DNA of 35,441 bases. It comes from a virus. Its lineage: Duplodnaviria > Caudoviricetes. The DNA is taken from IMG/VR virus record IMGVR_UViG_3300005805_000243, positions 1 to 35,441 of that record. One strand, written 5' to 3'. Positions 1-31,532 of the stretch are shown piece after piece; position 1 is the first letter of the stretch, and every line of letters starts with the position of its first letter. A program made the translations under genes and the position numbers. The notes beneath the pieces are model-generated. The model was given only the letters and a program-made list of their open reading frames with translations, was not told the origin of the DNA and searched no databases.

Positions 1-6013
<6,013 letters not shown>

Positions 6014-6038: not shown

Positions 6039-6067
6039 TTGACATTTATAAATAGATGTAATAAAAT
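6039..6067 (+). promoter_or_regulatory. sigma70-type promoter upstream of the glycosyltransferase, with a nested T4 late promoter
   Basis: TTGACA (6039-6044), 17-nt spacer, TAAAAT (6062-6067). TATAAATA at 6047-6054 lies inside the spacer. Confidence 0.7.
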
Positions 6068-6075
6068 TATTTATT
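6043..6075 (-). promoter_or_regulatory. Late-promoter-like motifs for the collagen-like gene
   Basis: The - strand reads AATAAATA (6075-6068) and TATAAATG (6050-6043); each is one mismatch from TATAAATA. Confidence 0.5.
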
Positions 6076-6092
6076 ATATTGGAGTATTTATA

Positions 6093-9000
6093 ATGACGAC
6101 CATTGCGATCATAGACATAATCGGCTTAACTTATGATGGAACAACTCTTTCAAAAAGAGGATTAGGTGGTTCTGAATCCGCTGTAATTTTAATCTCAAAA
6201 GAACTCCAAAAACAAGGATTTGATGTAACTGTCTTCAATAATTGCATTAACGATGATTCATCTGAAGGTATTTATGATGGCGTAAATTACATAGATCTTT
6301 TGAGATTAAAAAATAATAGAAATTACAATTTTGACATTGTTATCTCATCGAGAACTGTTATTCCATTTGTTGCTGAAAAACATTGGCCAACTTTTGGGCA
6401 AGATATCGCTGCTCATAATTACCCTCATCCACATTATTTTAAACATATAAAAGATAATGCTAAACTAAAAGTAGTTTGGATGCATGATACCTTTTGCAGA
6501 GGTGATCATTTAATAGAAGAAATGTTGCTTGAAGGTGATATTGATGAGCTTTTCACGCTTTCTGATTTTCACACATCGTATGTCACAAATTGTGATCATG
6601 GAAGAAAAAGAAATTTTGAGGTACTAAAAAATAAAATTTTCATAACAAGAAATGGAATTCAAAAGCATAAGCCCTATGTAGATATATCTCAAAAAGATCC
6701 AGATCTATTTGTTTATAATTCTTCAGTAACAAAAGGCATGGTACCTCTTGTTGAAAATATTTGGGAAAAAATTAAGACAAATATTCCTTCTGCCAAACTA
6801 AAAGTAATTGGTGGTTTCTATAGATTTAAAAATAGTCAGCCAGACGAACAAGAAAAAAAGTGGAGACAAATGATCTCCGAACCAAAATATAAAAATTTGG
6901 ATATAGATTTTACTGGCATCATTCGCCAAGATGAAATCGCTGAGATTTTATCAAAGGCATCATTCATGATATATCCTCCAGCATTTCCAGAAACTTTTGG
7001 TATATCGAGTTTGGAGTCTCTTTATTACAACACACCTTTAATTTCATCCAGATTTGGTGCTTTAGAAGAAATTGCGGTTGAACAAGCATGCTGGCTAATG
7101 AATTATCCAATAGAGCCAAATGGTTTATTTCCATTTATAAATTCTGAAGAACAGGAAGCCAAATTTATTGAACTTGTTCTTCGTGCTCATAAAGACAAAT
7201 ATTTACATCAACAAAAGATGTATTATTGCAATACAATTAAAGAATTTTGTGGTTGGGATTCAGTTGCATTACAATGGAAACAGCATCTTTTGAAAAAGGT
7301 CGGTGAGTATCTTCCAGTAGATGATTACAGAAAGATATCTTACATAAATGATAGAATACACACAATCTTTGGAAGAAGATTCTCAAATAGAGAAGAATGG
7401 AACACATTTAAAACTCAAGAACAACCTATATCAATAATTTCTACTTTTTATAATTGTGAAAAATACATACAAAAATGTATTGATTCTGTTATATCGCAAG
7501 ACTATGAAAACTATAAACTCTACTTAATCGATGACTATTCTACCGATAATACGGTAGAAATTGTTAAGATGAAATTATCTTCTTTTGCACCAAAAATAAA
7601 AGAAAAAATAATTTTCATCACCAATGATGAAAATAGAGGTGCGGTTAGAAATCAAATTGAAATTATTAAAAATTGTGTTGACAATGAAGATATTGTCATA
7701 TTATTAGATGGTGATGACAGTTTTGTGAATGATAATAATATATTGAACTATTTCAATAATCTATATCAAGACGGGCAAACAGAATTTACTTATGGCTCTT
7801 GCTGGTCGATGTGTGATAATATTCCTCTTGTTTCACAGCCTTATCCAGAAGAAATTAAAAACAATCGTGATTACAGAAAATACAGATTCAATTGGATATT
7901 ACCCTATACTCATACGAGAACTTTTAAAGCTAAATTGGTGAAAAATATTCATGATAATAACTTTAAAGACTCAAAAGGAGATTGGTATAAAGCAGGAGGT
8001 GATGGTGCGGTATTCTATTCCGTAATAGAACAGGCTGATCCTGAAAAAATCAAAGTGGTTCAGGATATATTCTACAATTATAATGATATGAATTCTCTGA
8101 ACGATTATAAAATAAATTCTGAACTACAAAATAAAAACGCCAGAGAAATTTCTAACAGAACCCCTTCATTAAATTATTTTACTATAATAATACCAACAAT
8201 GTGGAGATGCCAAGAAATTTTTCTTAGAGGTTTGACCAATTACATAAATCATCCTCTTATCAATGACATTATTATTATCAACAATGATGTGAACAAAACG
8301 CCAGATTGGAACATATTAAATCATGAAAAAATTCGTGTCATAAATCAAAAAGAAAACATTTACGTCAATAAAGCATTCAACATAGGCGTAGAGTTGAGTA
8401 AAAACGAAAAACTCTGTTTTGCTAATGATGATATCGTATTTGATATGAGATTAATGAATAAGTTATATAACAGAATTATTCCAGAAAATGGTGCACATGG
8501 AATAATCACGGGGGAGGCTAAGTTTGGTCATCCTCCAACGACTGATGGTGCTATAAATTTCTTAGAATGGCGACCTGGTTATATAATTCATGGTTTTGGT
8601 CAAATAATGATTATGCACAAGAAAAATTGGATTCCAATCATTGATGACCTGAATTTATATTTTGGTGATGATTATATTTTTCATATGAATCTGATGAAAG
8701 GTGTGAAAAATTATCTGATATACAACATCTTTCATGAAGCATTAATGGCGCAAACGACAAAAGATCCCGCTATTAGTGAAGGCATGTATGAAAAAGAAAA
8801 GCCACATTGGGAAAAATGGTTCTTTGAAAATCCACTTCCTTCTGTAAAAGAAGAAGTAAAACAAATTGCACCAATTAAAGAAAAGAAAAAAATATTAATT
8901 GCTATTCCCACTGCAAAGTATATTGAATCCGAGACATTTAAATCGATTTATGATTTAGAAGTTCCTGATGGATATGAAACTAATTTTCAATTTTTCTATG

Positions 9001-9476
9001 GATATAACATTGCACAAATAAGAAATTTGATAGCACATTGGGCTGAAAGATACGATTATCTTTTCTCCGTAGACAGTGATATTGTCTTTGAAAAAGATAC
9101 GCTGAAAAAATTATTGAGTCATGATAAGGATGTGGTGAGCGGTCTATACGTTCAAAGAAAAGAAGAAAAGGTTCTAGAAATTTATCGTATAAACAAAAGA
9201 GGTGGAGTTTCTAATGTAACTTATGAAGATTTGTCTAAAGAATCTTTGGCGAGGATTTCAGCTTGTGGCTTTGGTTGTGTTCTGATAAAATCAAAAGTAA
9301 TAAGAAAGATTGGTTATCCACAATTTATATATCGCGAAGCTCTAGATCACAAGCACACCGTTTCAGAAGATGTTCATTTCTGTGCAAGAGCTATTGAAGA
9401 AGGTTTTGATATATGGGCAGACACCACAATCCTATGCGAACACATAGGAAATAAAAAATATAAAGTTATCGGGTAA
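6093..9476 (+). CDS. Multidomain glycosyltransferase: N-terminal GT-B (GT4-like) plus three GT-A (GT2-like) domains
   Basis: The start is more likely ATG 6093 (GGAG at 6081-6084) than 6039. GT4 part: GLGGSE and ETFGISSLE (E-x7-E). GT2a (from ~7428): ISIISTFYNCEKYIQKCIDSVISQDY...IDDYSTD...LLDGDD. GT2b (from ~8174): FTIIIPT...ANDDIV...FGDD. GT2c (from ~8889): ILIAIPT...SVDSDIV...GFGCVLIK...SEDVHFC. Confidence 0.92.
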   Translation: MTTIAIIDIIGLTYDGTTLSKRGLGGSESAVILISKELQKQGFDVTVFNNCINDDSSEGIYDGVNYIDLLRLKNNRNYNFDIVISSRTVIPFVAEKHWPTFGQDIAAHNYPHPHYFKHIKDNAKLKVVWMHDTFCRGDHLIEEMLLEGDIDELFTLSDFHTSYVTNCDHGRKRNFEVLKNKIFITRNGIQKHKPYVDISQKDPDLFVYNSSVTKGMVPLVENIWEKIKTNIPSAKLKVIGGFYRFKNSQPDEQEKKWRQMISEPKYKNLDIDFTGIIRQDEIAEILSKASFMIYPPAFPETFGISSLESLYYNTPLISSRFGALEEIAVEQACWLMNYPIEPNGLFPFINSEEQEAKFIELVLRAHKDKYLHQQKMYYCNTIKEFCGWDSVALQWKQHLLKKVGEYLPVDDYRKISYINDRIHTIFGRRFSNREEWNTFKTQEQPISIISTFYNCEKYIQKCIDSVISQDYENYKLYLIDDYSTDNTVEIVKMKLSSFAPKIKEKIIFITNDENRGAVRNQIEIIKNCVDNEDIVILLDGDDSFVNDNNILNYFNNLYQDGQTEFTYGSCWSMCDNIPLVSQPYPEEIKNNRDYRKYRFNWILPYTHTRTFKAKLVKNIHDNNFKDSKGDWYKAGGDGAVFYSVIEQADPEKIKVVQDIFYNYNDMNSLNDYKINSELQNKNAREISNRTPSLNYFTIIIPTMWRCQEIFLRGLTNYINHPLINDIIIINNDVNKTPDWNILNHEKIRVINQKENIYVNKAFNIGVELSKNEKLCFANDDIVFDMRLMNKLYNRIIPENGAHGIITGEAKFGHPPTTDGAINFLEWRPGYIIHGFGQIMIMHKKNWIPIIDDLNLYFGDDYIFHMNLMKGVKNYLIYNIFHEALMAQTTKDPAISEGMYEKEKPHWEKWFFENPLPSVKEEVKQIAPIKEKKKILIAIPTAKYIESETFKSIYDLEVPDGYETNFQFFYGYNIAQIRNLIAHWAERYDYLFSVDSDIVFEKDTLKKLLSHDKDVVSGLYVQRKEEKVLEIYRINKRGGVSNVTYEDLSKESLARISACGFGCVLIKSKVIRKIGYPQFIYREALDHKHTVSEDVHFCARAIEEGFDIWADTTILCEHIGNKKYKVIG

Positions 9477-9804
9477 CTTGAGGAGTCACTATCGCCACAC
9501 CTTGAAGAATTCTAGTAACTTCAGTTGTGGCGGTTTCTTCTATTTCTAAATCATAAACATATCTACCAGGTTTTAAATTGGCAGTATTTGATGCTGTCAT
9601 AGACATAGAAATGTTTCCATTTGCTGCGTCTTGAATAGATACGGTAAAATTATTTGAAGTTGTTGAATCGTAATTTTTTCTTATTTGTGATCTAGCTGTA
9701 TAACCAACCAAGTTAATAGACTCATTTGTGAAATAATCTTTCAGTTCTATGGTCGCAGCAAAGGTTGCACCTTGATCTATGGTTATTTCATAGTAGTTAG
9801 ACAT
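9466..9804 (-). CDS. BppU-N-like small Ig-fold virion adaptor protein
   Basis: ITIDQGATF...INLVGYTARSQIRK...LKPGRYVYDLEI...RILQGVAIVTPQVTR, a pattern typical of this family in phage fibre regions. The 3' end overlaps the GT gene by 11 bp. Confidence 0.75.
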   Translation of the reverse strand: MSNYYEITIDQGATFAATIELKDYFTNESINLVGYTARSQIRKNYDSTTSNNFTVSIQDAANGNISMSMTASNTANLKPGRYVYDLEIEETATTEVTRILQGVAIVTPQVTR

Positions 9805-10288
9805 TTATTTGCCCGTCATCTGTATTGATTACTTCTTTTGATACCTTTAACTGTTCTAATTCTTCAACAATTTTTGTATTTAACACTTGATAGTCATCAT
9901 CACTAGTAATAGCTCGAACAATAAGTCTTGAATTTTTATTCAATTCATTGATGTGATCATCATTTTTGCTTATACCACTTTGAATAACTTCTATTGATTT
10001 TTCTAATTCGACTGAGGTTTTATCTATTCCTTTTGAAGTTTCTTTAAGAATAACAATAGACTCATCTAGTTTTTTGTTGTTTTTATCCAAGGCGTCAACC
10101 ATTTCTCGTTGAAGCTCTACAGATATTTTCATAGTTTGAAGAATATTTCTGAGTTCTGCGGCCACCGTACAGAATTGTTCTGCAATTGCTACATCGGAAA
10201 CTCCTCTAGGAGTTTGAGAAGAATAATTAGGAACGACAGTTTGTTGTCCTTGATTTATTGATATAGGTTGAATATCTATTTCTTTCAT
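9797..10288 (-). CDS. Hypothetical coiled-coil protein (163 aa)
   Basis: AAGGA RBS; heptad-like stretch LDKNNKKLDESIVILKETSKGIDKTSVELEKSIEVIQSGISKN; overlaps the start of the next gene. Confidence 0.75.
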   Translation of the reverse strand: MKEIDIQPISINQGQQTVVPNYSSQTPRGVSDVAIAEQFCTVAAELRNILQTMKISVELQREMVDALDKNNKKLDESIVILKETSKGIDKTSVELEKSIEVIQSGISKNDDHINELNKNSRLIVRAITSDDDYQVLNTKIVEELEQLKVSKEVINTDDGQINV

Positions 10289-10306: not shown

Positions 10307-10786
10307 TTATTCTGGCGGAGGATCTAATACAGTAACAGTATAAGACTTTCTTTCTGCAAAAACTCTTTCATCTATCAATTCAAAAATATAAATTCCAGCC
10401 TGTGTTGGATTAAGAAAAAGCATTTCGTCAAATTTTAACATTGCTTCTTGTCCATTAATTGTTATTTTATATTCATTATCTTTAAGTTGTTCATATTCTG
10501 AGTCTGTTGTATCATTCGATCTTGTTAACCATAAACAAATTTTACTATTTAGCCCAATTTGATACGTTGAATTTGGTACAACGACAAAATGCAATTCAAG
10601 AAGTTTTATTAATTCTGGCTCATTATATCTATATTCTCGATATTCCGATCCAATGAATCTAGTCTCTTCTATCGTAAGTTTTCTTATAGAATTATCATTA
10701 GTTAATTCTGGCTCTTGATTGCAGTATGAATGACCTACATACATTCCATTCTGTGGATTATATTCGACAAAAACAAAATTGGCCAT
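10307..10786 (-). CDS. Hypothetical late protein (159 aa), possibly a fibre chaperone/accessory protein
   Basis: GGAG RBS and upstream CATAAATA; located downstream of the tail fibre. The function is a guess. Confidence 0.7.
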   Translation of the reverse strand: MANFVFVEYNPQNGMYVGHSYCNQEPELTNDNSIRKLTIEETRFIGSEYREYRYNEPELIKLLELHFVVVPNSTYQIGLNSKICLWLTRSNDTTDSEYEQLKDNEYKITINGQEAMLKFDEMLFLNPTQAGIYIFELIDERVFAERKSYTVTVLDPPPE

Positions 10787-10818: not shown

Positions 10819-12132
10819 TCAATTTATTTCTAACAGATATTGCTCTAGTTTAGTCATGAAGAGATCAATATCCTTTCCATCATATACTCTATGGTCCATT
10901 AAAATCATAATATTAGTTGTCCAAAAATCATCTATCTTTTTTCTGGGAGGTCCGATCCAAACACAAATTGGAATACCTTCAATTTCATTGACAACTCCCC
11001 ATCCCCAATAAGGGGTGTCCGATGGCTCGGCGAATCCTACAAAACTAACAGCCACCGAACATTGACTAGGTGGAAGTAAATCTTTGATATGATCTATCTC
11101 AGGAATTTTGTCGTATGCCTTAGCTCTAATTTTTTTCGTCTTTGCAATTATTCTCTTAAGGACGGTTTTATATCCATGTCTAGGATCCAACAAAACCGTA
11201 GAGAGATGATCTTCGTCCCACGGAACTCTGACCGCAACCATAGGAGATTTTGTTCTGAAAATTTTATCGTCCCTTGTCACATTTCGAAAATGTGGATACA
11301 CCTTGTATATTTTAGCTATGGCTTCAATAACTTTGGATTGAGCTATTAAATTATTTTTAGAACTTATTTTTAATTCTTTTATAGAAGTCATAGAAGCGGT
11401 ATTTTTCCATATTTTTAATTTATTGTGCTGCCAATTATTAATTTCAATTTCTTCTGGATAATTTTTTGATCCTTGAATCGTAGACCGACACATTTTTTTA
11501 ACATCTCTAGTGTCAGATGTTACTTTCATATGCTCACATGCTCTTTTGTGACTTTCTATCATTTCTAAACCCATTAGTCCAACATTTCGCATTCCTAATA
11601 GATATATCATTGGAATAATAAAGTTTGGGCTTTGAATTATTTTGAAAAGTAAATTTTCTAAATTTCTTACAATAGGAGCTAATTCTTGAGAATTGGGTAT
11701 TTCATAACTCAAGGCGTAACCATTGTGCCTATTCTCATCATCACCAATACTATCAAAAAGTTTAGGACAAAGTGAACTTAATCCTTTGAAAACACAACTT
11801 AACCATCCTTCAGCTACAAGATTTAATGCAGCAATAGAATTGTTACCTTGCAAATTCTGAAGATAATCAATTAAATTTTGAGTGTATTCACACGGGTCTT
11901 CATACCCACCACACAGATTGGCTAATTGTCTAAAGCACTCTCTATGAACATATTCGTCTTCTAATTGATTTTCAACTCCCGCTCCTCTTTCAGCAGCAAG
12001 AACTGCAATTTGTTCTAGCGCACAGAGAGTAGAAAAAAGATAGCGATATGCTAATTTTTTATTTTTATGTCTTGGAACATTAAATAATGGTATAAGTTTT
12101 TCTACTCTCTTTTGTATCTTAATTTTTTTCAT
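10819..12132 (-). CDS. Fusion of a ferritin-like di-iron domain and a 2-oxoacid-dehydrogenase E2/CAT-like acyltransferase domain
   Basis: Di-iron ligand pattern E40, E60-x-x-H63, E108, E133-x-x-H136. C-terminal D413-H-R-V-Y-D-G419 matches the E2 catalytic DHRxxDG. Upstream segments EAIAKIYKVYPHFRN, VAVRVP and SVAVSFVG parallel E2 conserved blocks. Confidence 0.78.
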   Translation of the reverse strand: MKKIKIQKRVEKLIPLFNVPRHKNKKLAYRYLFSTLCALEQIAVLAAERGAGVENQLEDEYVHRECFRQLANLCGGYEDPCEYTQNLIDYLQNLQGNNSIAALNLVAEGWLSCVFKGLSSLCPKLFDSIGDDENRHNGYALSYEIPNSQELAPIVRNLENLLFKIIQSPNFIIPMIYLLGMRNVGLMGLEMIESHKRACEHMKVTSDTRDVKKMCRSTIQGSKNYPEEIEINNWQHNKLKIWKNTASMTSIKELKISSKNNLIAQSKVIEAIAKIYKVYPHFRNVTRDDKIFRTKSPMVAVRVPWDEDHLSTVLLDPRHGYKTVLKRIIAKTKKIRAKAYDKIPEIDHIKDLLPPSQCSVAVSFVGFAEPSDTPYWGWGVVNEIEGIPICVWIGPPRKKIDDFWTTNIMILMDHRVYDGKDIDLFMTKLEQYLLEIN

Positions 12133-12149
12133 AAAAATTTTTCATAATA

Positions 12150-14105
12150 TTAAGTTCGATAACCGACTAGATTTATTACTCTTCTTTTGATTACAAGTCT
12201 AGGAATTGTATTTCCATCGTCTATTGTATAAGAAGCATTGGTGCCTATAGGAACAGTAGAAATTGTGCATCTTAAATGTTGTGGATAAATTATCTCTGCT
12301 ATTGGATAATAGGCTCCATTCACAACAATAAATGCCCTAGGACTTAAATATGTTTGAAAATTTACTCCACTGCCTACTATATCCCAATAATTAAGAGTGG
12401 ATATAACACCTGCGCGTGCTTCTGGAATATCTTGTGCATTTCTCCATTGTGCTTCTACTGTATATGTTGAAGATGATCCGTTGGTTATTGGTGCCGTATC
12501 TCTTATGGTATTTAACAGGGCAAAAAATGAACCTGGTGTAGAAAGTTGAGTCCATTCTGATGTATAAAAAACGTTGCCATTTCTCAATACTCTGTATCTA
12601 AAATCTGGCGAACCGGCACCTGCTCCCCCATCTGCACCTAAGACTAATCCTAAAGTTCCTGTATTATTAAAAGTTCCAGTACCACCACTCGTTCCAAAAC
12701 TACCAGATACACTTATTGCTCCACCAACATAGTTGACATATGAATAACCTCCTACACCAATACTTTCTATTAAAATGGATGCAGAAAAAGAAATATCAAC
12801 GGTGTCTATTCCTGTTGGAATTGTTGCCGTTATAGACATTCCTGTCGAAACCCAACCACCGCCATCTTGCGTTACTCTTCCTATTGTGCGGCTACCATCT
12901 GAATATCCATAATAGTTGCCACCACTAGTGACACCTGGGACTCCAAAAAATATTCTGGTGTCTTGGTTAGAAACATCGCTCGAAGCTATAAAATTGACAT
13001 TTGTCAGGCCTGAAGCGTCACCAGTTATAATACCGGATACGTCTAAATCACCAGTTATAACCGCTTTTGAAGAACTTATATTCAAGCGTGGAGTTTCGTC
13101 TACTTCTAAGGATAAATGTCTAACTAAAGAATTATGTCCGACCCTCATCGCAGAACCATCTAGAGTGGCATATCCAGTATAATCCGTTCCTATTAATTTG
13201 ACAAAACCATTGCCGAGTGGTCCTGGAGAAATATTTTTCGCTTGTCTGATTATAAGATTTCCAGTATCTACATTTAAATCACCCAAGACCGAACCTGTGA
13301 CTATGAGGTTTCTTGTATTAACCACCCCAGATACAATAACATTGCCGCCAGTAATATTTGTGGTGGACTGTGTAACAATATTTGAAGTTACGGTTAAGTT
13401 TGTAACGGTTAGATTATTGGTGATAATTAGATTGCTGGCATTTATAGTGCCTGTAATATTTACGTTTCCAGAAACATTTACATAGCTGCCAACATTTAAA
13501 GTTGAAACGTTTAATGATGTTATATTAGCGGTTGTTCCAAAAATTCTCGACGCTACTAAATTTTGACCCACCACCACATTTGATGTTACAGAAACATTTT
13601 TTGAGAATATAACATTTCCTGAAGCGGCTAAAGAAATTTCTGTGTTGTTTAAATTTAATCTTCCCGCAAAAGAAGAAGTTTGCGGTCCTGTTTGAACTAT
13701 ATTAGCTCCCACACTCAAATTAGCTGCTACGTTTGCATATCCTGGAAGAATTAAGTTTGTAAAAGTTGGAACATCAATATTAACAGCACCACGTACAACA
13801 AGGTTGCCTATACTTACGTTTCCAGTTACAAATACATTTCCTCCAACATTAGCTGAATTTGCTACATTTAACGCCTCACCAGAACCCGTTACGTTAATGA
13901 ATCTAACGTTTGCCGTATTTGATAATAACGTATTAATTATTGCTGTATTAAGAACATTTAAAACGCCAGTTCCCGAAATAACTATTGTAGAGTTTGTATT
14001 AAAAAAACCGTTATCAGTTAAAGTGTTTGCTATCGTAATTAATTGAGATGTTACTGTTACCCATTGACCAAAGGTATTCCCAGCATTAATTTGATTAATC
14101 GGCAT
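12150..14105 (-). CDS. Tail fibre / receptor-binding protein (651 aa)
   Basis: N-terminal NTFGQW anchor motif common in fibres of aquatic T4-like phages; long N/V/T/G-rich beta-repeat shaft (ANVGGNVFVTGNV); distinct C-terminal head. Confidence 0.75.
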   Translation of the reverse strand: MPINQINAGNTFGQWVTVTSQLITIANTLTDNGFFNTNSTIVISGTGVLNVLNTAIINTLLSNTANVRFINVTGSGEALNVANSANVGGNVFVTGNVSIGNLVVRGAVNIDVPTFTNLILPGYANVAANLSVGANIVQTGPQTSSFAGRLNLNNTEISLAASGNVIFSKNVSVTSNVVVGQNLVASRIFGTTANITSLNVSTLNVGSYVNVSGNVNITGTINASNLIITNNLTVTNLTVTSNIVTQSTTNITGGNVIVSGVVNTRNLIVTGSVLGDLNVDTGNLIIRQAKNISPGPLGNGFVKLIGTDYTGYATLDGSAMRVGHNSLVRHLSLEVDETPRLNISSSKAVITGDLDVSGIITGDASGLTNVNFIASSDVSNQDTRIFFGVPGVTSGGNYYGYSDGSRTIGRVTQDGGGWVSTGMSITATIPTGIDTVDISFSASILIESIGVGGYSYVNYVGGAISVSGSFGTSGGTGTFNNTGTLGLVLGADGGAGAGSPDFRYRVLRNGNVFYTSEWTQLSTPGSFFALLNTIRDTAPITNGSSSTYTVEAQWRNAQDIPEARAGVISTLNYWDIVGSGVNFQTYLSPRAFIVVNGAYYPIAEIIYPQHLRCTISTVPIGTNASYTIDDGNTIPRLVIKRRVINLVGYRT

Positions 14106-21984: not shown

Positions 21985-24900
21985 TTAAGGTGTTGTTACT
22001 TCAATACCTGTAGAAACTATTTTTTGAGTTGTATCTTCATTAAATACGACAGATTCAGTTGGAGTATATTCATTAAAAACCACAGTTCCAGACGGGTGTA
22101 AAAGTTTCAAAAATGATTCTTTGAATTTTGAAAATTGTTGTTTAGTTCTCAAAATGTAAGAACCTGTATTGAATAACGTACTGTCCTGTAATTTTTTATC
22201 GCTTGATAAAAGGCTACTATTGTCCAAATACCTTCCATCATATTCAAAATATGAATCATTTATAACTGCTTGTAAATTGGCCGTTCCATCACCAGAATTG
22301 GTCATTATTATTGCGGGTGCAACTCTATATCCTACTCCCTTATCAAAAATTTGTATTTCTTCAATTCCTCCAGCTTTTTTGGTAGACGAAAGGGATATAG
22401 ATTCTGAATCGCCCATTAAAGCTGTGACAGTTAATACTGCGCCGGTTCCAGTAGAAGATTGAACATTTATTGTTGGCAATCTATGATTATCATATCCATA
22501 TCCTCCAATTGGGAAAGAATTATATAACCCTATTTCTGTATTTTGTTTGGACGTAGTAAAAGCAGAAGTTACATTTATTTGCGTATTTGACACTATTTGT
22601 GATATGGTTCTTCTTTGATTAAAAACCATCACATCTCTTCCAACTCCAAATCCATCGACTAAAAATGTGGAACCATAGCCAGTTATTGTATTACTTCCAG
22701 CAACTATTCCTACATTAAAACAATTGCCTGATGGTGGATGTGGTTGAAATTGTATAGAGGTTATTCCGCCCGAAGCGTCAACTTTATCTACGGCCGCCGA
22801 ACAACCAGAACCATGCGTTCTTCCTGGAATGGGAATAAATCTTAACTTGTCTCCAACTTGATAACCACTTCCCTTATTATTTATTTCTACTCTTCCTATT
22901 GAACCCATGCTATCTACTGCGAAAGGAAAGCCTTGTGAAGTTCTATTGGATACTATTATTGTGTTTGGTGAAAGCGCGTCGGTTAAATAAAATTGTAAAT
23001 TTGGAGAATTTAAATTACTGTCCAAAATTATGCCAGAAGTGATGGGTCCCAATTCTGTAAATGTGGAAAAAGAAAAGGCGTCTATCAATCTTGTCAATGA
23101 ATTTGGTGATACTATTGCAGAATTACTAAAACCTAATGATGTTTTATAATTAGCTGCATCGACTTTCGTGGTGGCCAATTCTATAATTAAATCGGTATTG
23201 TAAGTATAAGTATTAGGTGATAAAACTCCACTTTTTTCTACATCAACAATTGCGCCATTGGCTGTTGCTTCTCCGGCAGTTAATGTAAAAGTAAAGGTGG
23301 CTCCGTTTGCCCCTCCACTGAGTGCTGTAATTCCTGTTGGTGGTGAGGTATAAACACCAGCTCTTATAAGTTGTATGTTTGCAATTGGTCCACCAGTGGC
23401 GGCGACGGTCGAGGCAAAAACACGAGCATTGGCAGTAAAATCTGGACTTAAAGCTGTTCCGCCAGTAAACGTTAAAAAGGTATTAGCATTAACAAAAGCT
23501 CCAACATTTGCTGTTATTGAACCTATGCCAAAAAGACGATTGTCATATACCTTAATTCCATCTCCAGCCCTAAATCCTGAACCACCATAATTTATTATGA
23601 GTTGATTTAATAAACCAGAAAAAACTTTGGACACTATTGCATTTGCTGGCTCAATAAATTGTCCGCCAATCATTATAATAGGGTCTCCCACATTATACGA
23701 TGACCCTTCATTTATAACATTTATTGTTTGTAACCCAGAATATCCTGGTAAATATAAGTCAATTAAATTATCCTCTTTATTCAAAACCGTTGTCTTGAAG
23801 TCTTCACCATTAATAAAATTGTCTCGGGTGGTTCTATCACTTATTTCAAATTCTAAAATATCTGTGCCTTCATTATTATAAGAAAGATATGTTTCAATAA
23901 TACCGGTTGCGCCAGAAGTGTTTCCTGTTATTTTTCTATTGTTTAATAACGCTGGATCAAAATTGTTGTAAGAAATTTTTATTTCACTTCCATTTGATAC
24001 GGATTTTGAAAAAACTATCTTTTTATATTCTTTCTGAATATAGTAATCAGGAGGTAAGTCGAATTGATAGATTGTATCGGTGCCTATGCCACCATAATAT
24101 ATTACATCACCCTCTGGCTTAACAGTGAGCATGTAAGAGGTTCCTTCACCAACCGAGGGGGTAAATGTTATATCAGTTGTTGCGCTAACAATATTCCACG
24201 CTTCACTCATACTAAAAGAGCGAATCGTGTCTGTGTTATATCCGATCAAATAAAATAGAGTTCCATCAGGCTTAAAGTGTATACCTGTAGCGCCGACCTC
24301 TCCAGTAGTTGTTCTTTGTCCAAAATATGCCGCGGTATTAACTTGCCAAGGCGTACTTAGAGTAAATTGGTATATTCTATCTGTTGTTTCATTTACAACA
24401 TAAACGTTAGCACCAGAAGTGTCAAATTTAACATCTCTTAAACCAGCTGCAGGAACAACGGTCGGTAAGGCGGTAGCAAGAATAGATGTAACATTTACAT
24501 TATATGTAAATTGTGAAGATAAAGTGCTTAAATTCCATGGTTCTTGAAATTCACACTGTATTATTCGATTATTTCCATCAGTGGATTGACAAAAATACAA
24601 TTGACTTCCATCGGGTCTAAAATCTAATCCTACAACATCTGTGGTCGAACCAAAAGTAGTCAATGCTGCGCTTTGTTGAATAGCACTTGTGGATGCACTT
24701 TGAATATTCCATGCCTCAGAAAGGGAGTGTTTATGAATACTGTTTGTGGTGTTATCAATAACAAATAGTTCTGTGCCATCAGGTTTAAATTTTATTTGTG
24801 CTGGATTAAGATAGGGAAACTTAAATTTTTTACCGGTATAAATCGCATTATCTAGTTGCCAAAAATTAACTGTCTGTAAAACCCCATTAACATAGACAGA

Positions 24901-25443
24901 AACATCATTAACTGTTGCTTCTTGCGGTAAATAAAAAGTTGTATTCGATGCAACACCATTAAATTTATCAACACCAGAAATATACCTTGCATAAACTTGA
25001 GGAAGACACCGAACGACTTTTGATATTTTCCAATTTCCTCCTGATGCTAGTAAAACATCATTTCTTGGAATCGTGACATTTACCTCTTCATTAAATAAAG
25101 CTCTAAAAAAATATTTAATCGACCTTTCATTTCCTTTTGATAGATAAAGAGGTATTGAATTTTTTATTAAGAGACTTTTAGAAGCTAAAGTGTCTCTAGG
25201 AAATAATTCCAAAAATGTTTTGAAAAAATATTCTTCAAACTCGTCTAGATTTTGATCTATATCCGAAATGGTGTAAAACTTTTTTGCCTTATAATTTAGA
25301 TCGTTTTTTTGTGTTCCTAATTTATTTTCTAAAAATTCATAATATGCCTCCATAAAACGAATGAAGGTTGGATAATCCTCTTTAACAAAATCAGGAAATT
25401 GATTTTCAACAACTAGAGATTGTTTATTATCAGTATAACTCAT
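21985..25443 (-). CDS. gp7: Baseplate wedge initiator gp7-like with an inserted beta-propeller
   Basis: QFPDFVKEDYPTFIRFMEAYYEFLE, LYLSKGNERSIKYFFRALFNE and C-terminal KLQDS...SY...LLHPSG; between gp6 and gp8. Confidence 0.8.
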   Translation of the reverse strand: MSYTDNKQSLVVENQFPDFVKEDYPTFIRFMEAYYEFLENKLGTQKNDLNYKAKKFYTISDIDQNLDEFEEYFFKTFLELFPRDTLASKSLLIKNSIPLYLSKGNERSIKYFFRALFNEEVNVTIPRNDVLLASGGNWKISKVVRCLPQVYARYISGVDKFNGVASNTTFYLPQEATVNDVSVYVNGVLQTVNFWQLDNAIYTGKKFKFPYLNPAQIKFKPDGTELFVIDNTTNSIHKHSLSEAWNIQSASTSAIQQSAALTTFGSTTDVVGLDFRPDGSQLYFCQSTDGNNRIIQCEFQEPWNLSTLSSQFTYNVNVTSILATALPTVVPAAGLRDVKFDTSGANVYVVNETTDRIYQFTLSTPWQVNTAAYFGQRTTTGEVGATGIHFKPDGTLFYLIGYNTDTIRSFSMSEAWNIVSATTDITFTPSVGEGTSYMLTVKPEGDVIYYGGIGTDTIYQFDLPPDYYIQKEYKKIVFSKSVSNGSEIKISYNNFDPALLNNRKITGNTSGATGIIETYLSYNNEGTDILEFEISDRTTRDNFINGEDFKTTVLNKEDNLIDLYLPGYSGLQTINVINEGSSYNVGDPIIMIGGQFIEPANAIVSKVFSGLLNQLIINYGGSGFRAGDGIKVYDNRLFGIGSITANVGAFVNANTFLTFTGGTALSPDFTANARVFASTVAATGGPIANIQLIRAGVYTSPPTGITALSGGANGATFTFTLTAGEATANGAIVDVEKSGVLSPNTYTYNTDLIIELATTKVDAANYKTSLGFSNSAIVSPNSLTRLIDAFSFSTFTELGPITSGIILDSNLNSPNLQFYLTDALSPNTIIVSNRTSQGFPFAVDSMGSIGRVEINNKGSGYQVGDKLRFIPIPGRTHGSGCSAAVDKVDASGGITSIQFQPHPPSGNCFNVGIVAGSNTITGYGSTFLVDGFGVGRDVMVFNQRRTISQIVSNTQINVTSAFTTSKQNTEIGLYNSFPIGGYGYDNHRLPTINVQSSTGTGAVLTVTALMGDSESISLSSTKKAGGIEEIQIFDKGVGYRVAPAIIMTNSGDGTANLQAVINDSYFEYDGRYLDNSSLLSSDKKLQDSTLFNTGSYILRTKQQFSKFKESFLKLLHPSGTVVFNEYTPTESVVFNEDTTQKIVSTGIEVTTP

Positions 25444-29057: not shown

Positions 29058-29360
29058 TTATCCTATTAAAATTTTAGCCCAGCCACTTGCCACAAAAGTC
29101 GGAGGAAACCCTGGATGTATTGCTGGCATAAACATAGTGATTGCGGGAATTCCATTCATTAAAACATTAGGCCATCCAAAACAAACAATATCTGGTGCAG
29201 GAAAGGCAACAATTGATTCAGGTGGAGGGTGTGGAATATTCATTGAGCCTATCATCAAAGCTGGAATGCCATTTTGAAAAATATTTGGATGAAAAGGAAA
29301 CAAAAATGGTAAAGCCCAGTGAAATGAAACTGATATGCCTACTGATGCTGCTGGTAACAT
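29058..29360 (-). CDS. Divergent PAAR-repeat spike-tip protein (gp5.4-like)
   Basis: 100 aa directly after gp5; three degenerate PAAR motifs (LPAASVG, NGIPALMIG, NGIPAITM) and terminal ASGWAKILIG. Confidence 0.75.
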   Translation of the reverse strand: MLPAASVGISVSFHWALPFLFPFHPNIFQNGIPALMIGSMNIPHPPPESIVAFPAPDIVCFGWPNVLMNGIPAITMFMPAIHPGFPPTFVASGWAKILIG

Positions 29361-29363
29361 AAC

Positions 29364-31532
29364 TTACGCCGTTGAATCGATTAGATTTAAAAAGGTTATG
29401 GGTGAATTTCTCATTTCTTCCTGTACAGAATTCATATAAGTTGAGTTCATATAATTTTGAAGTCCTGAAGCTATCTCCGAGTTATTTAATCCATTTTCTT
29501 TTCCAGTTTTGACCATATTTACTATAGAAAATTTAAAGTTGTCGTCGGTAGATAATGTATTCGATACTCTATTTAACACTGATGATAATCCATCAACGCT
29601 TGGCATAGAATCAAAAACCGCTTGTTGAGCAACATCTAAGAATGAATTAAATAATGGTTCTATAGAACCTATGGCTGAGTTTGTTGAATTGATATTCAGG
29701 TTTAAAGCACTCTGAATATCATTAAACGTTTGACCTATAAGGCTAGAACCGCTATTCAAAAAATCATTTGCAGCAAATGCTGCTTCTTTTAATCCATCAA
29801 GAAATCCACCAGATCCTTGACTGAAAATATCAGCGGCTCCACCTAAACTGGATAAAGCACCAAGAGGATCATTAACTATAGAAATGCCAGTTTGATATAA
29901 ATCTTTTGCAATATTAAACCCCTCTTTTAAAGAATCAAAACTAAATCCGCCTCCTAATCCATCACTTCCAAAAGAAAAATCACCCATGAAATTAGAAAAG
30001 GATTCTCCTAGTCCATCAGCAAGATCTCCCATGACAGTTGAGAATGCATCAGAATTTAATATGGTTCCCAAAGGATCACTAATAGCATCTTTTACCGTTC
30101 CTATGACATCCATTAAACTTCCTGAACTGAGAGACTCAGTTATTGAAGAAAATGCATCTGATAATCCACTAAAAGATGTTAGCCCACTAAAAGCATCTCC
30201 TAAACCAGTAGTCAATTCACCTAATATTCCTCCTTGACTCAAAGTGTCTGAAAGCCCACCAAAAAAATCTGCACCAGAAAAACCAGCTAGATCGGATAAA
30301 CCTCCAGCCAAACCCTCAGTAAATCCTCCTAATGATTCAAAAGTGCTGGAAAAGAAAGACCCAGCAGTTTCAGAAATTGCTCCCGCTGTAGCTTCTCCTA
30401 TTTTATCGAGTAATGATTTATCCATAGATTCTAAAGCGGTATCACCAACTTCACCTAGTGCTGCTCCACCACCCTTTCCAATTAAAACCATGGGACCAAA
30501 CAAAGAAGACACTGCTTTAGATTCTAATAGTAATGCGCCATCTGATGAAAATGTTCCTAGTCCTTTTGCAGAAAGACTCATATCTCCTACTTTGGCACTG
30601 AGGTCCATATTTCCAGCTTTGGAAATAAGTGCCATATCGATCTGCGCGCTTCCAGTAATATTTTTCTTTGCTGAAATTCCTACATCTTCTTTAGCAGATA
30701 GACTCGCTGATTTTCCAGCAGACATTCCTATAGCTTCTTTAGCAGAAAGACTAAAATTTTTACAACTAATAGAAAAGTCACCATCAACTTGATAATTTGC
30801 ATTTCCTTTAACTATAACAGTTAAATTTTCTCCTACATATAATGTACTGCCAGCTCTAACTGTTTCGCTTTTTTTAGCTTGCACTTTTTCAGTAACAGAA
30901 CCGTCCGCAGCGTATTCAAAATAGGAACCTGATCTGTGAAACAACTGTATTCTTTCATCTTTAGGAGTGTCGTCCATCTCAAAAAGATGCCCAGACTCAG
31001 ATTCATATACATTGTTATAAGGGTAAACGGTTTTTGGTTTTTTTGGAGCTTCTGGAGAACCTGAAATAACATTGTTCATTTTTTGCTTGAATTGAGATTT
31101 ATCCATACTCTCATTTCTAGCTGCTCTCGGTGTTGTGGGTTCATCAATTGCCCTAGGATATTTTGAAAGTGATTCTCCAAAAACTTCAGGCTTAACTGGT
31201 GCTGTGTTCAACTGTGCAGCAGTTCTTGGATCATTGAATCCTAAAGTTTCGTTCGCCTTTCTCACTGGTATTCCAGATAAGACGCCCATCATGATTGGAA
31301 ATTGAGCATCTTCACCATCCATGAAAAAACCTGTTACAGTTTCACCTTCTTTTGGTGCATATGGATTTGGATTATTCAAAGGCAAAACGGGATGAGCCCA
31401 AGGTAAATCTTCTGTCTTGAGTTCCTGTTTATTTTCTGTATGGTGCCCAAAAATTCTAACTTGGCATCTACCCAACTTAAGTGGATCTATTCGATTTTCA
31501 ACTACGCCTACCCACCAAACAGAGTTAATCAT
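29364..31532 (-). CDS. gp5: Baseplate central spike gp5-like (OB fold + beta-helix, no lysozyme domain, long C-terminal extension)
   Basis: WWVGVVENRIDPLKLGRCQVRIFGHH...DLPWA...GFFMDG; YPYNNVYESESGHLFEMDDTP...HRSGS; ~8-residue beta-helix repeats. Confidence 0.9.
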   Translation of the reverse strand: MINSVWWVGVVENRIDPLKLGRCQVRIFGHHTENKQELKTEDLPWAHPVLPLNNPNPYAPKEGETVTGFFMDGEDAQFPIMMGVLSGIPVRKANETLGFNDPRTAAQLNTAPVKPEVFGESLSKYPRAIDEPTTPRAARNESMDKSQFKQKMNNVISGSPEAPKKPKTVYPYNNVYESESGHLFEMDDTPKDERIQLFHRSGSYFEYAADGSVTEKVQAKKSETVRAGSTLYVGENLTVIVKGNANYQVDGDFSISCKNFSLSAKEAIGMSAGKSASLSAKEDVGISAKKNITGSAQIDMALISKAGNMDLSAKVGDMSLSAKGLGTFSSDGALLLESKAVSSLFGPMVLIGKGGGAALGEVGDTALESMDKSLLDKIGEATAGAISETAGSFFSSTFESLGGFTEGLAGGLSDLAGFSGADFFGGLSDTLSQGGILGELTTGLGDAFSGLTSFSGLSDAFSSITESLSSGSLMDVIGTVKDAISDPLGTILNSDAFSTVMGDLADGLGESFSNFMGDFSFGSDGLGGGFSFDSLKEGFNIAKDLYQTGISIVNDPLGALSSLGGAADIFSQGSGGFLDGLKEAAFAANDFLNSGSSLIGQTFNDIQSALNLNINSTNSAIGSIEPLFNSFLDVAQQAVFDSMPSVDGLSSVLNRVSNTLSTDDNFKFSIVNMVKTGKENGLNNSEIASGLQNYMNSTYMNSVQEEMRNSPITFLNLIDSTA

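Follow-up and report, generated by a model that had tools for sequence, protein, structure and literature searches.

A predicted di-iron oxidase fused to an E2-type acyltransferase core is part of a four-part tail-tip module linked across unrelated phages

What would a tailed phage do with a protein that appears to join a di-iron oxidase to an acyltransferase and is encoded next to a fibre-like gene? We addressed this question for a 35,441-nt stretch of DNA from a virus of the Caudoviricetes (Duplodnaviria; IMG/VR record IMGVR_UViG_3300005805_000243), here called the window, which is a 35.4-kb fragment of the virus record with a completeness estimate of 21%. The protein in question, termed C, is encoded on the minus strand by a single open reading frame (ORF), and a preliminary description made from the sequence alone had proposed that it oxidizes and then acylates a virion protein, a glycan, or a host receptor. 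The gene and its two halves are as follows.

10819..12132, minus strand: C, fused enzyme of 437 amino acids (aa) with an ATG start (evidence: ORF, motifs, predicted model, 40 + 86 relatives).
11473..12132, minus strand: N-domain of C (residues ∼1 to 220), predicted ferritin-like bundle with a 2-His/4-Glu di-metal site (evidence: structure match to aldehyde-deformylating oxygenase [ADO], ligand register with an AurF-family protein).
10819..11472, minus strand: C-domain of C (residues ∼221 to 437), predicted E2/CAT-type acyltransferase core (evidence: Foldseek, structure match, profile, conservation).

The motifs reported in the preliminary description were found as claimed, with the putative di-iron ligands E40, E60xxH63, E108, and E133xxH136 in the N-domain and DHRVYDG at residues 413 to 419 (nt 10896-10876), 18 residues from the C terminus. 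In 5000 shuffles, the loose di-iron spacing pattern occurred 90 times and DHRxxDG 0 times. We gathered relatives by a word search (40 among 4127 candidates) and by a full scan of 1.84 billion representatives (86 relatives); a wide alignment was then built from 86 full-length sequences picked from both lists, leaving out fragments and near-duplicates. All six ligands are invariant in the 41 close relatives (41/41). In the wide alignment, where homologues devoid of the His/Glu motifs would have spoken against a di-iron site, the six ligands are complete in 83/86 sequences and the six plus His414 in 82/86 (the exceptions being P0090, P0093, P0114, and P0120), and both active sites are retained over an identity range of 24 to 92%. 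The joining of the two domains in one ORF is likewise supported. The longest match in an unrestricted scan had 701 aa, so no fusion of C to a long fibre was seen. PHROGs and NCBIfam held no family for C, the only Pfam match was subthreshold (13.8 versus a 23-bit cutoff), no viral structural match was found in BFVD, and a single-sequence search of the PDB with C matched nothing.

We then examined the predicted structure of C (mean pLDDT 91, pTM 0.88). In the model, the ligands of the N-domain sit on four long helices that superpose on di-iron bundles. Residues 18 to 214 best matched ADO (Z 18.4, rmsd 2.8 to 2.9, 190 to 192 residues aligned), followed by an Arthrobacter ferritin-like protein (Z 15.5), a Kitasatospora ADO-like protein (14.9), and methane monooxygenase (14.8), with R2 proteins at 13.4 and below (R2, 13.0) and the R2-like ligand-binding oxidase at 13.4; Z values of helical bundles can be inflated, and a fold by itself shows no function. 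Together with the E, ExxH, E, ExxH ligand set, this match agrees with the ferritin-like fold that had been suggested for the N-half. Four cyanobacterial ADO structures (4rc5, 4rc7, 5ux2, and 4kvq) gave the best matches (Z 17.7 to 18.4, rmsd 2.8 to 3.0, ∼190 residues) and have the 2-His/4-carboxylate motif spacing of C. C differs from ADO in its fusion to an acyltransferase and in sequence (12 to 15% identity), and no acyl-ACP reductase gene was recognized among the window's ORFs. Neither did we find support for membership in the ADO family, with no Pfam or NCBIfam match among 86 members and no ADO chain among 59 PDB profile matches.

The N-domain also aligned with an AurF-family ferritin-like protein of G001, with the six ligands in register (HH probability 93.8%), so that AurF and CmlI (PF11583) share the ferritin-like di-iron scaffold with C. 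The third His of AurF is His223, four residues before Glu227 (PMC11775713). The equivalent position 129 of C is I, V, L, or F in 86/86 sequences and never His, which argues that the site of C is of the 2-His/4-carboxylate type and not of the AurF type. The AurF-type N-oxygenase named among the candidates in the preliminary description was accordingly discarded. Dob3 is a stand-alone di-iron oxidase and not the C fusion (PMC13061610).

Residues 242 to 437 matched E2 cores with Z 16 to 17.6 (7b9k, 17.6) and CAT with Z 14.9 to 15.4, Foldseek reached 3mae at an E value of 9e-9, and, by sequence, the profile of C reached E2 at E 2.8e-11 and CAT at E 0.024. The E2/CAT fold put forward for this half is thus supported by the model and by the profile. 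The key residues are S363, D413-H414-R415, and D418-G419, to which R302 and E385 are added as family-specific residues, invariant in 76/76 short forms and only in these. With the E2 core (PF00198; 3mae, 7b9k, and 1dpc), C shares the fold over ∼175 residues (Z 17.0 to 17.6, rmsd ∼3.1 to 3.2 for 7b9k and 1dpc), the DHRxxDG motif with its catalytic His, and a Ser/Thr at the transition-state position: residue 363, Ser or Thr in 66/76 short forms and 10/10 long forms, aligns with the Thr that precedes N-x-G in the E2 motif, which we take to be the transition-state residue. Unlike E2, C lacks lipoyl and E3-binding domains, as had been noted (Pfam, 0/86 members at E 0.01), and carries instead an N-half modeled as an all-helical ferritin-like bundle; identity to E2 is 14 to 20%, C falls below the Pfam cutoff given above, and no E1 or E3 gene was found among the window's ORFs. 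A true E2 subunit was rejected; in 86/86 members, Pfam gave no match to a lipoyl, E1-binding, or E3-binding domain. Type A CAT (PF00302; 1pd5, 3cla, and 2i9d) has the fold of the C-domain (TM ∼0.66 by target) but only 11 to 14% identity, and the profile of C is far nearer E2 (E 3e-11) than CAT. A CAT resistance gene was likewise rejected, PF00302 being weak in 2/41 relatives (best E 9e-4) and found in 0/86 at E 0.01. One relative, P0007, is labeled "chloramphenicol O-acetyltransferase" in one source, and we found no test behind the label.

C is predicted to be a di-iron oxidase joined to an E2-type acyltransferase. It stands outside the E2, ADO, AurF, and CAT families and would, if our inferences hold, act as an E2 core supplied by an ADO-like oxidase. 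Both folds are known; the fusion and its tie to a phage tail tip correspond to no described system in the literature searched. As the preliminary description had supposed, that search found no account of the fusion, nor of the module presented below, supplements and most subscription papers lying outside its coverage.

The genes around C comprise the following features.

12150..14105, minus strand: D-bearing fibre-like protein of 651 aa, upstream neighbour of C.
12150..12932, minus strand: D, tip domain of ∼260 aa at the C terminus of the fibre-like protein (evidence: homology to the C termini of J-type fibres, leave-one-out).
10307..10786, minus strand: A, 159 aa, an Ig-like beta-sandwich preceded by a small N-terminal domain (evidence: model, Ig-like matches, leave-one-out).
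9797..10288, minus strand: B, predicted coiled coil of 163 aa whose leader is polar and in which a single Cys (C40) is conserved, candidate acyl acceptor (evidence: alignment, coil analysis).

The stop of the fibre-like gene is separated from the start of C by 17 nt, and gaps of 32 nt and 18 nt lie between C and A and between A and B, respectively. C had been placed directly behind a tail fibre. The 17-nt gap agrees with this placement, but the fibre label found no direct family match in Pfam and PHROGs-type scans; the last 260 residues of the 651-aa protein are homologous to the C termini of proteins in three related contigs (L004, L005, and L030) that carry the PHROGs label central tail fibre J. 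All four parts of the module are small and predicted to be soluble.

We then looked into the neighbourhood of C in 21 distinct related contigs from collections of viral, metagenome, and genome sequences, each contig being counted once. They range from T4-like phages to a 328-kb jumbo phage (L003), J-type siphophages (L004, L005, and L030), and a podo-like phage (L017), with GC contents of 28 to 69%. A and B were found within 1.3 kb of C in 18/21 contigs, and the three misses are contigs of 1.6 to 2.8 kb that end in or beside C. The order D-A-B-C was seen in 15 contigs, 2 others share D-C-A-B with the window, and one contig, truncated upstream, shows C-A-B. With profiles made from the first loci, we recovered A in 7/7 and B in 6/6 held-out loci, and leave-one-out recovery was 17/17 for A and 18/18 for B (weakest E values of 0.02 and 0.047) and 16/17 for D (L017 fails, and L005 is weak), D being homologous across loci whatever the remainder of its protein. 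A has 150 to 165 aa across loci and a confident model (pLDDT 93) with Ig-like matches of up to Z 7.6, which is the level of a common fold, and B is a coiled coil of 103 to 221 aa. Conserved aromatic residues were found in D. Systems such as gp38, Tfa, and gp57A are types of tail-fibre adhesins or assembly chaperones; we found no Pfam or PHROGs family common to more than one A or B member that would signal such kinship, and A had only generic Ig-like matches. Insensitive scans for A or B apart from C returned only two known contigs with B and none with A. We conclude that C is one part of a four-part tail-tip module linked across unrelated phages.

Some loci depart from this pattern. In L003 (8700-9954), B is separated from C by three unrelated ORFs, and A from B by a short one. 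In L005 (8803-9627), A contains an insertion of ∼120 residues with a CBM5/12-like match (Pfam CBM_5_12, E 0.008); this locus also encodes an integrase and a B devoid of Cys, and the inner insert is missing from its tip domain.

The sequences of B drew our attention to a single position. Its sole conserved residue is a Cys, present in 16/18 rows and replaced by Ser in L011 and Gly in L005, and only 3 other Cys occur in 2629 residues; L011 has a Cys four residues before the Ser-filled column, and the L005 clade keeps a Thr at position -4 from the Cys position. Around the Cys, positions -1 and +2 are hydrophobic in 18/18 rows and position +6 in 16/18. Since these neighbouring core positions are hydrophobic, the Cys lies beside the core of the coil, facing outward. 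This placement outside the core led us to reject a Cys3 metal site on the coil axis. The leader that precedes it is polar and is not a lipoprotein signal, so the host lipoprotein machinery would be an unlikely modifier. The end of B in L040 (7510-7902) is hydrophobic (hydropathy of 1.75 over 19 residues) and may anchor the protein in a membrane; no stretch as strong is present in the other B rows.

Outside the module, C has longer relatives of 530 to 701 aa. In a quick, midpoint-rooted tree, these long forms and the 98 short forms made up separate clades (SH-aLRT 100). A long-form profile matched 246 proteins, and those named among the matches listed belong to Legionella or Legionellaceae and are called E2 subunit, putative CoA-dependent acyltransferase, or hypothetical. 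Legionella proteins such as WP_058449396.1 and WP_058482664.1 have the same fused architecture and ligand set as C (atlas model, TM 0.75 over 431 residues) but differ from it by their length (∼590 to 700 aa, with N- and C-terminal extensions), chromosomal location, separate clade, and 20 to 25% identity. No study of the Legionella form was found in the literature searched, and a viral scan with its full-length sequence came back empty. Legionella adelaidensis (L029, 9965-10801) encodes a 278-aa di-iron N-domain alone, without the acyltransferase half, between a Dam methylase and amino-acid transporters. One catalytic residue is missing from each of the long, cellular-type P0114 and P0120 (a His-to-Ser change in the acyltransferase motif; a Glu-to-Lys change in the first ExxH), and single-activity versions may therefore exist. 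The short form was recovered at a single locus in a GTDB scan, on a 7.7-kb contig that was binned with Myxococcales and carries phage genes; it thus looks phage-borne. Another 300 genomes from the phylum of that locus gave no full-length match and only two E2-domain matches. Queries with C, A, the L005 enzyme, and two versions of D matched nothing among 50,697 records of cultured phages.

We tentatively propose, at somewhat less than even confidence, that C oxidizes a long acyl chain and transfers it, likely from coenzyme A (CoA), to the conserved Cys of B. C would work inside the infected cell, acyl-CoA and reducing equivalents being available in the cytoplasm and not outside the cell. There, the N-domain would bind two irons and activate O2 by using host electrons. 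Its substrate would be a long acyl chain, since the nearest fold is that of the fatty-aldehyde enzyme ADO, which acts on long fatty chains. E2 transfers acyl groups between thiols, and the C-domain may similarly form an E2/CAT-like trimer that moves the acyl group from thiol to thiol, with the exposed Cys of B, behind its flexible leader, replacing the lipoyl arm as the acceptor. Lipidated B would be mounted with the Ig-like A on the fibre tip D, and the lipidated tip could help in contacting the outer membrane of the host or a receptor that binds lipids. We infer the order of the reactions (oxidation before acylation, as in the preliminary description), the identity of the chain, and the purpose of the product. 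A virion protein is the likeliest acceptor among the three substrates offered in that description, as pointed to by the conserved partners and the Cys of B.

Several observations weigh against this proposal. The L005-type B has no Cys at all (1/18 rows and 6/19 matches, several of the 13 Cys-bearing matches repeating training sequences), although both sites are intact in the L005 enzyme. At 12 to 15% identity, the fold match to ADO does not define the substrate. Close kin are found among the loci (L006/L007/L009, L012/L013, L038/L040, L004/L035, and L037/L039), so that the independent cases are fewer than the 21 contigs. Finally, the long Legionella-type proteins keep both sites, and phage partners are missing from the sole neighbourhood seen, that of the N-domain alone; the family, therefore, need not act on B.

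The strict linkage of C to the tip genes may also be read as that of a virion component, in which a trimeric enzyme head would sit on a B stalk with A as the adaptor at tip D and would deacylate, transacylate, or oxidize a host surface molecule during adsorption, much as tailspike esterases do. Like fibres, the cores of E2 and CAT are trimeric, A is Ig-like, and the A of L005 has its carbohydrate-binding insertion. We nevertheless hold a virion-borne enzyme to be unlikely: a di-iron site that activates O2 depends on electrons and an E2 core on CoA thioesters, both scarce outside cells, and the conserved Cys of B would be left unexplained.

The wide occurrence of the longer relatives in Legionella chromosomes, with one neighbourhood seen without a phage partner, brings up another option, namely that the product of C is a small lipid or metabolite, newly made or modified (e.g., an acyl ester that has been hydroxylated or desaturated, or an altered host envelope lipid), that D-A-B binds or needs, no protein being acylated. 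The Cys-less B clade alongside an intact C would fit such a role, as would the nearest folds, which act on small molecules. On the other hand, the short forms make up their own clade (98 rows, SH-aLRT 100) with R302 and E385 invariant in 76/76, and they lie beside A and B wherever the contig allowed, so that we regard a small-molecule product as rather unlikely.

An exposed, conserved Cys in B and a Tyr column filled in 17/17 D sequences could instead serve as cross-linking sites, where a di-iron radical, or a thioester or amide formed by the E2 core, would join the Cys of B to A or D without any lipid. The R2-like ligand-binding oxidase cross-links itself and is among the fold matches (Z 13.4). 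We consider cross-linking of the module improbable, as ADO scores well above the R2 group and no Lys, Cys, His, Tyr, Trp, Ser, or Thr column of A reaches 60% conservation. Cross-linking of the collagen-like GYTGS fibre described below was rejected, such a protein being found in 1/21 contigs within the flanks examined.

Hydroxamate synthesis also works by pairing an oxidase with an acyltransferase, and the N-domain can be aligned with a protein of the AurF family. C might then N-hydroxylate and acylate an amine of a tip protein, so that the tip, now bearing hydroxamates, would bind iron and imitate a siderophore, after the Ferrojan idea. This appears very improbable to us, since the third His of AurF is replaced in all 86 sequences and every Lys column of D, A, and B stays below 60%. 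The Ferrojan hypothesis itself is in print (10.1101/674382, PMC11705849).

The neighbouring glycosyltransferase had suggested that C modifies the glycan made by this enzyme. The gene (6039..9476, plus strand) encodes a multidomain protein of 1145 aa, with a GT1/GT4-type domain and GT2-type domains, and lies 1.3 kb from C, between a collagen-like gene and an LtfC-like gene. A homologue was found in only 3/21 contigs (L001, L006, and L007), all of them T4-like relatives of the window phage, and on the strand opposite to C. We rejected C as a partner of the glycosyltransferase, the glycan dropped out of the substrates first considered, and the chance that C acts on it is very slim. The glycosyltransferase may glycosylate the collagen-like fibre, a very Tyr-rich protein of >2004 aa (2..6013, minus strand) whose ORF runs off the end of the window. 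This protein contains 162 GYTGS units together with globular inserts that recur (match to Pfam collagen at E 1e-212), and it has a relative in L001.

The remainder of the window contains a minus-strand T4-like baseplate operon with gp48-, gp53-, gp5-, gp25-, gp6-, gp7-, and gp8-like genes. The gp5-like hub (29364..31532, minus strand) has an OB domain, no lysozyme match, and a Gly/Ser-rich low-complexity stretch of ∼360 residues at its C terminus, and its gene is followed by a PAAR-like gene (29058..29360, minus strand). The gp7-like wedge protein (21985..25443, minus strand) has a beta-propeller insertion (Pfam lactonase/SGL matches). Promoter and terminator scans gave scores no higher than the shuffled level, and no RNA holder is listed for the module.

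The C family is real, conserved, and undescribed in what was searched, and its substrate is putative. If B is acylated, phage tails would carry a dedicated lipid modification, and an E2 core would have been repurposed as a protein acyltransferase. A broader and more doubtful proposal is that of a portable tip module in which a di-iron oxidase/acyltransferase attaches a tailored fatty acyl group to a coiled-coil tip protein, which would provide nonenveloped virions with a lipid-tipped device for adsorption or penetration and define a new class of E2-derived protein S-acyltransferases. Because the module is exchanged among diverse phages and has no match in cultured ones, it may mark a host-recognition strategy that culture collections have missed. 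The result would also bear on an uncharacterized family that is present in many Legionella species under the database label of E2 subunit. If our proposal is true, the module would represent a hitherto undescribed way of finishing a virus tail.
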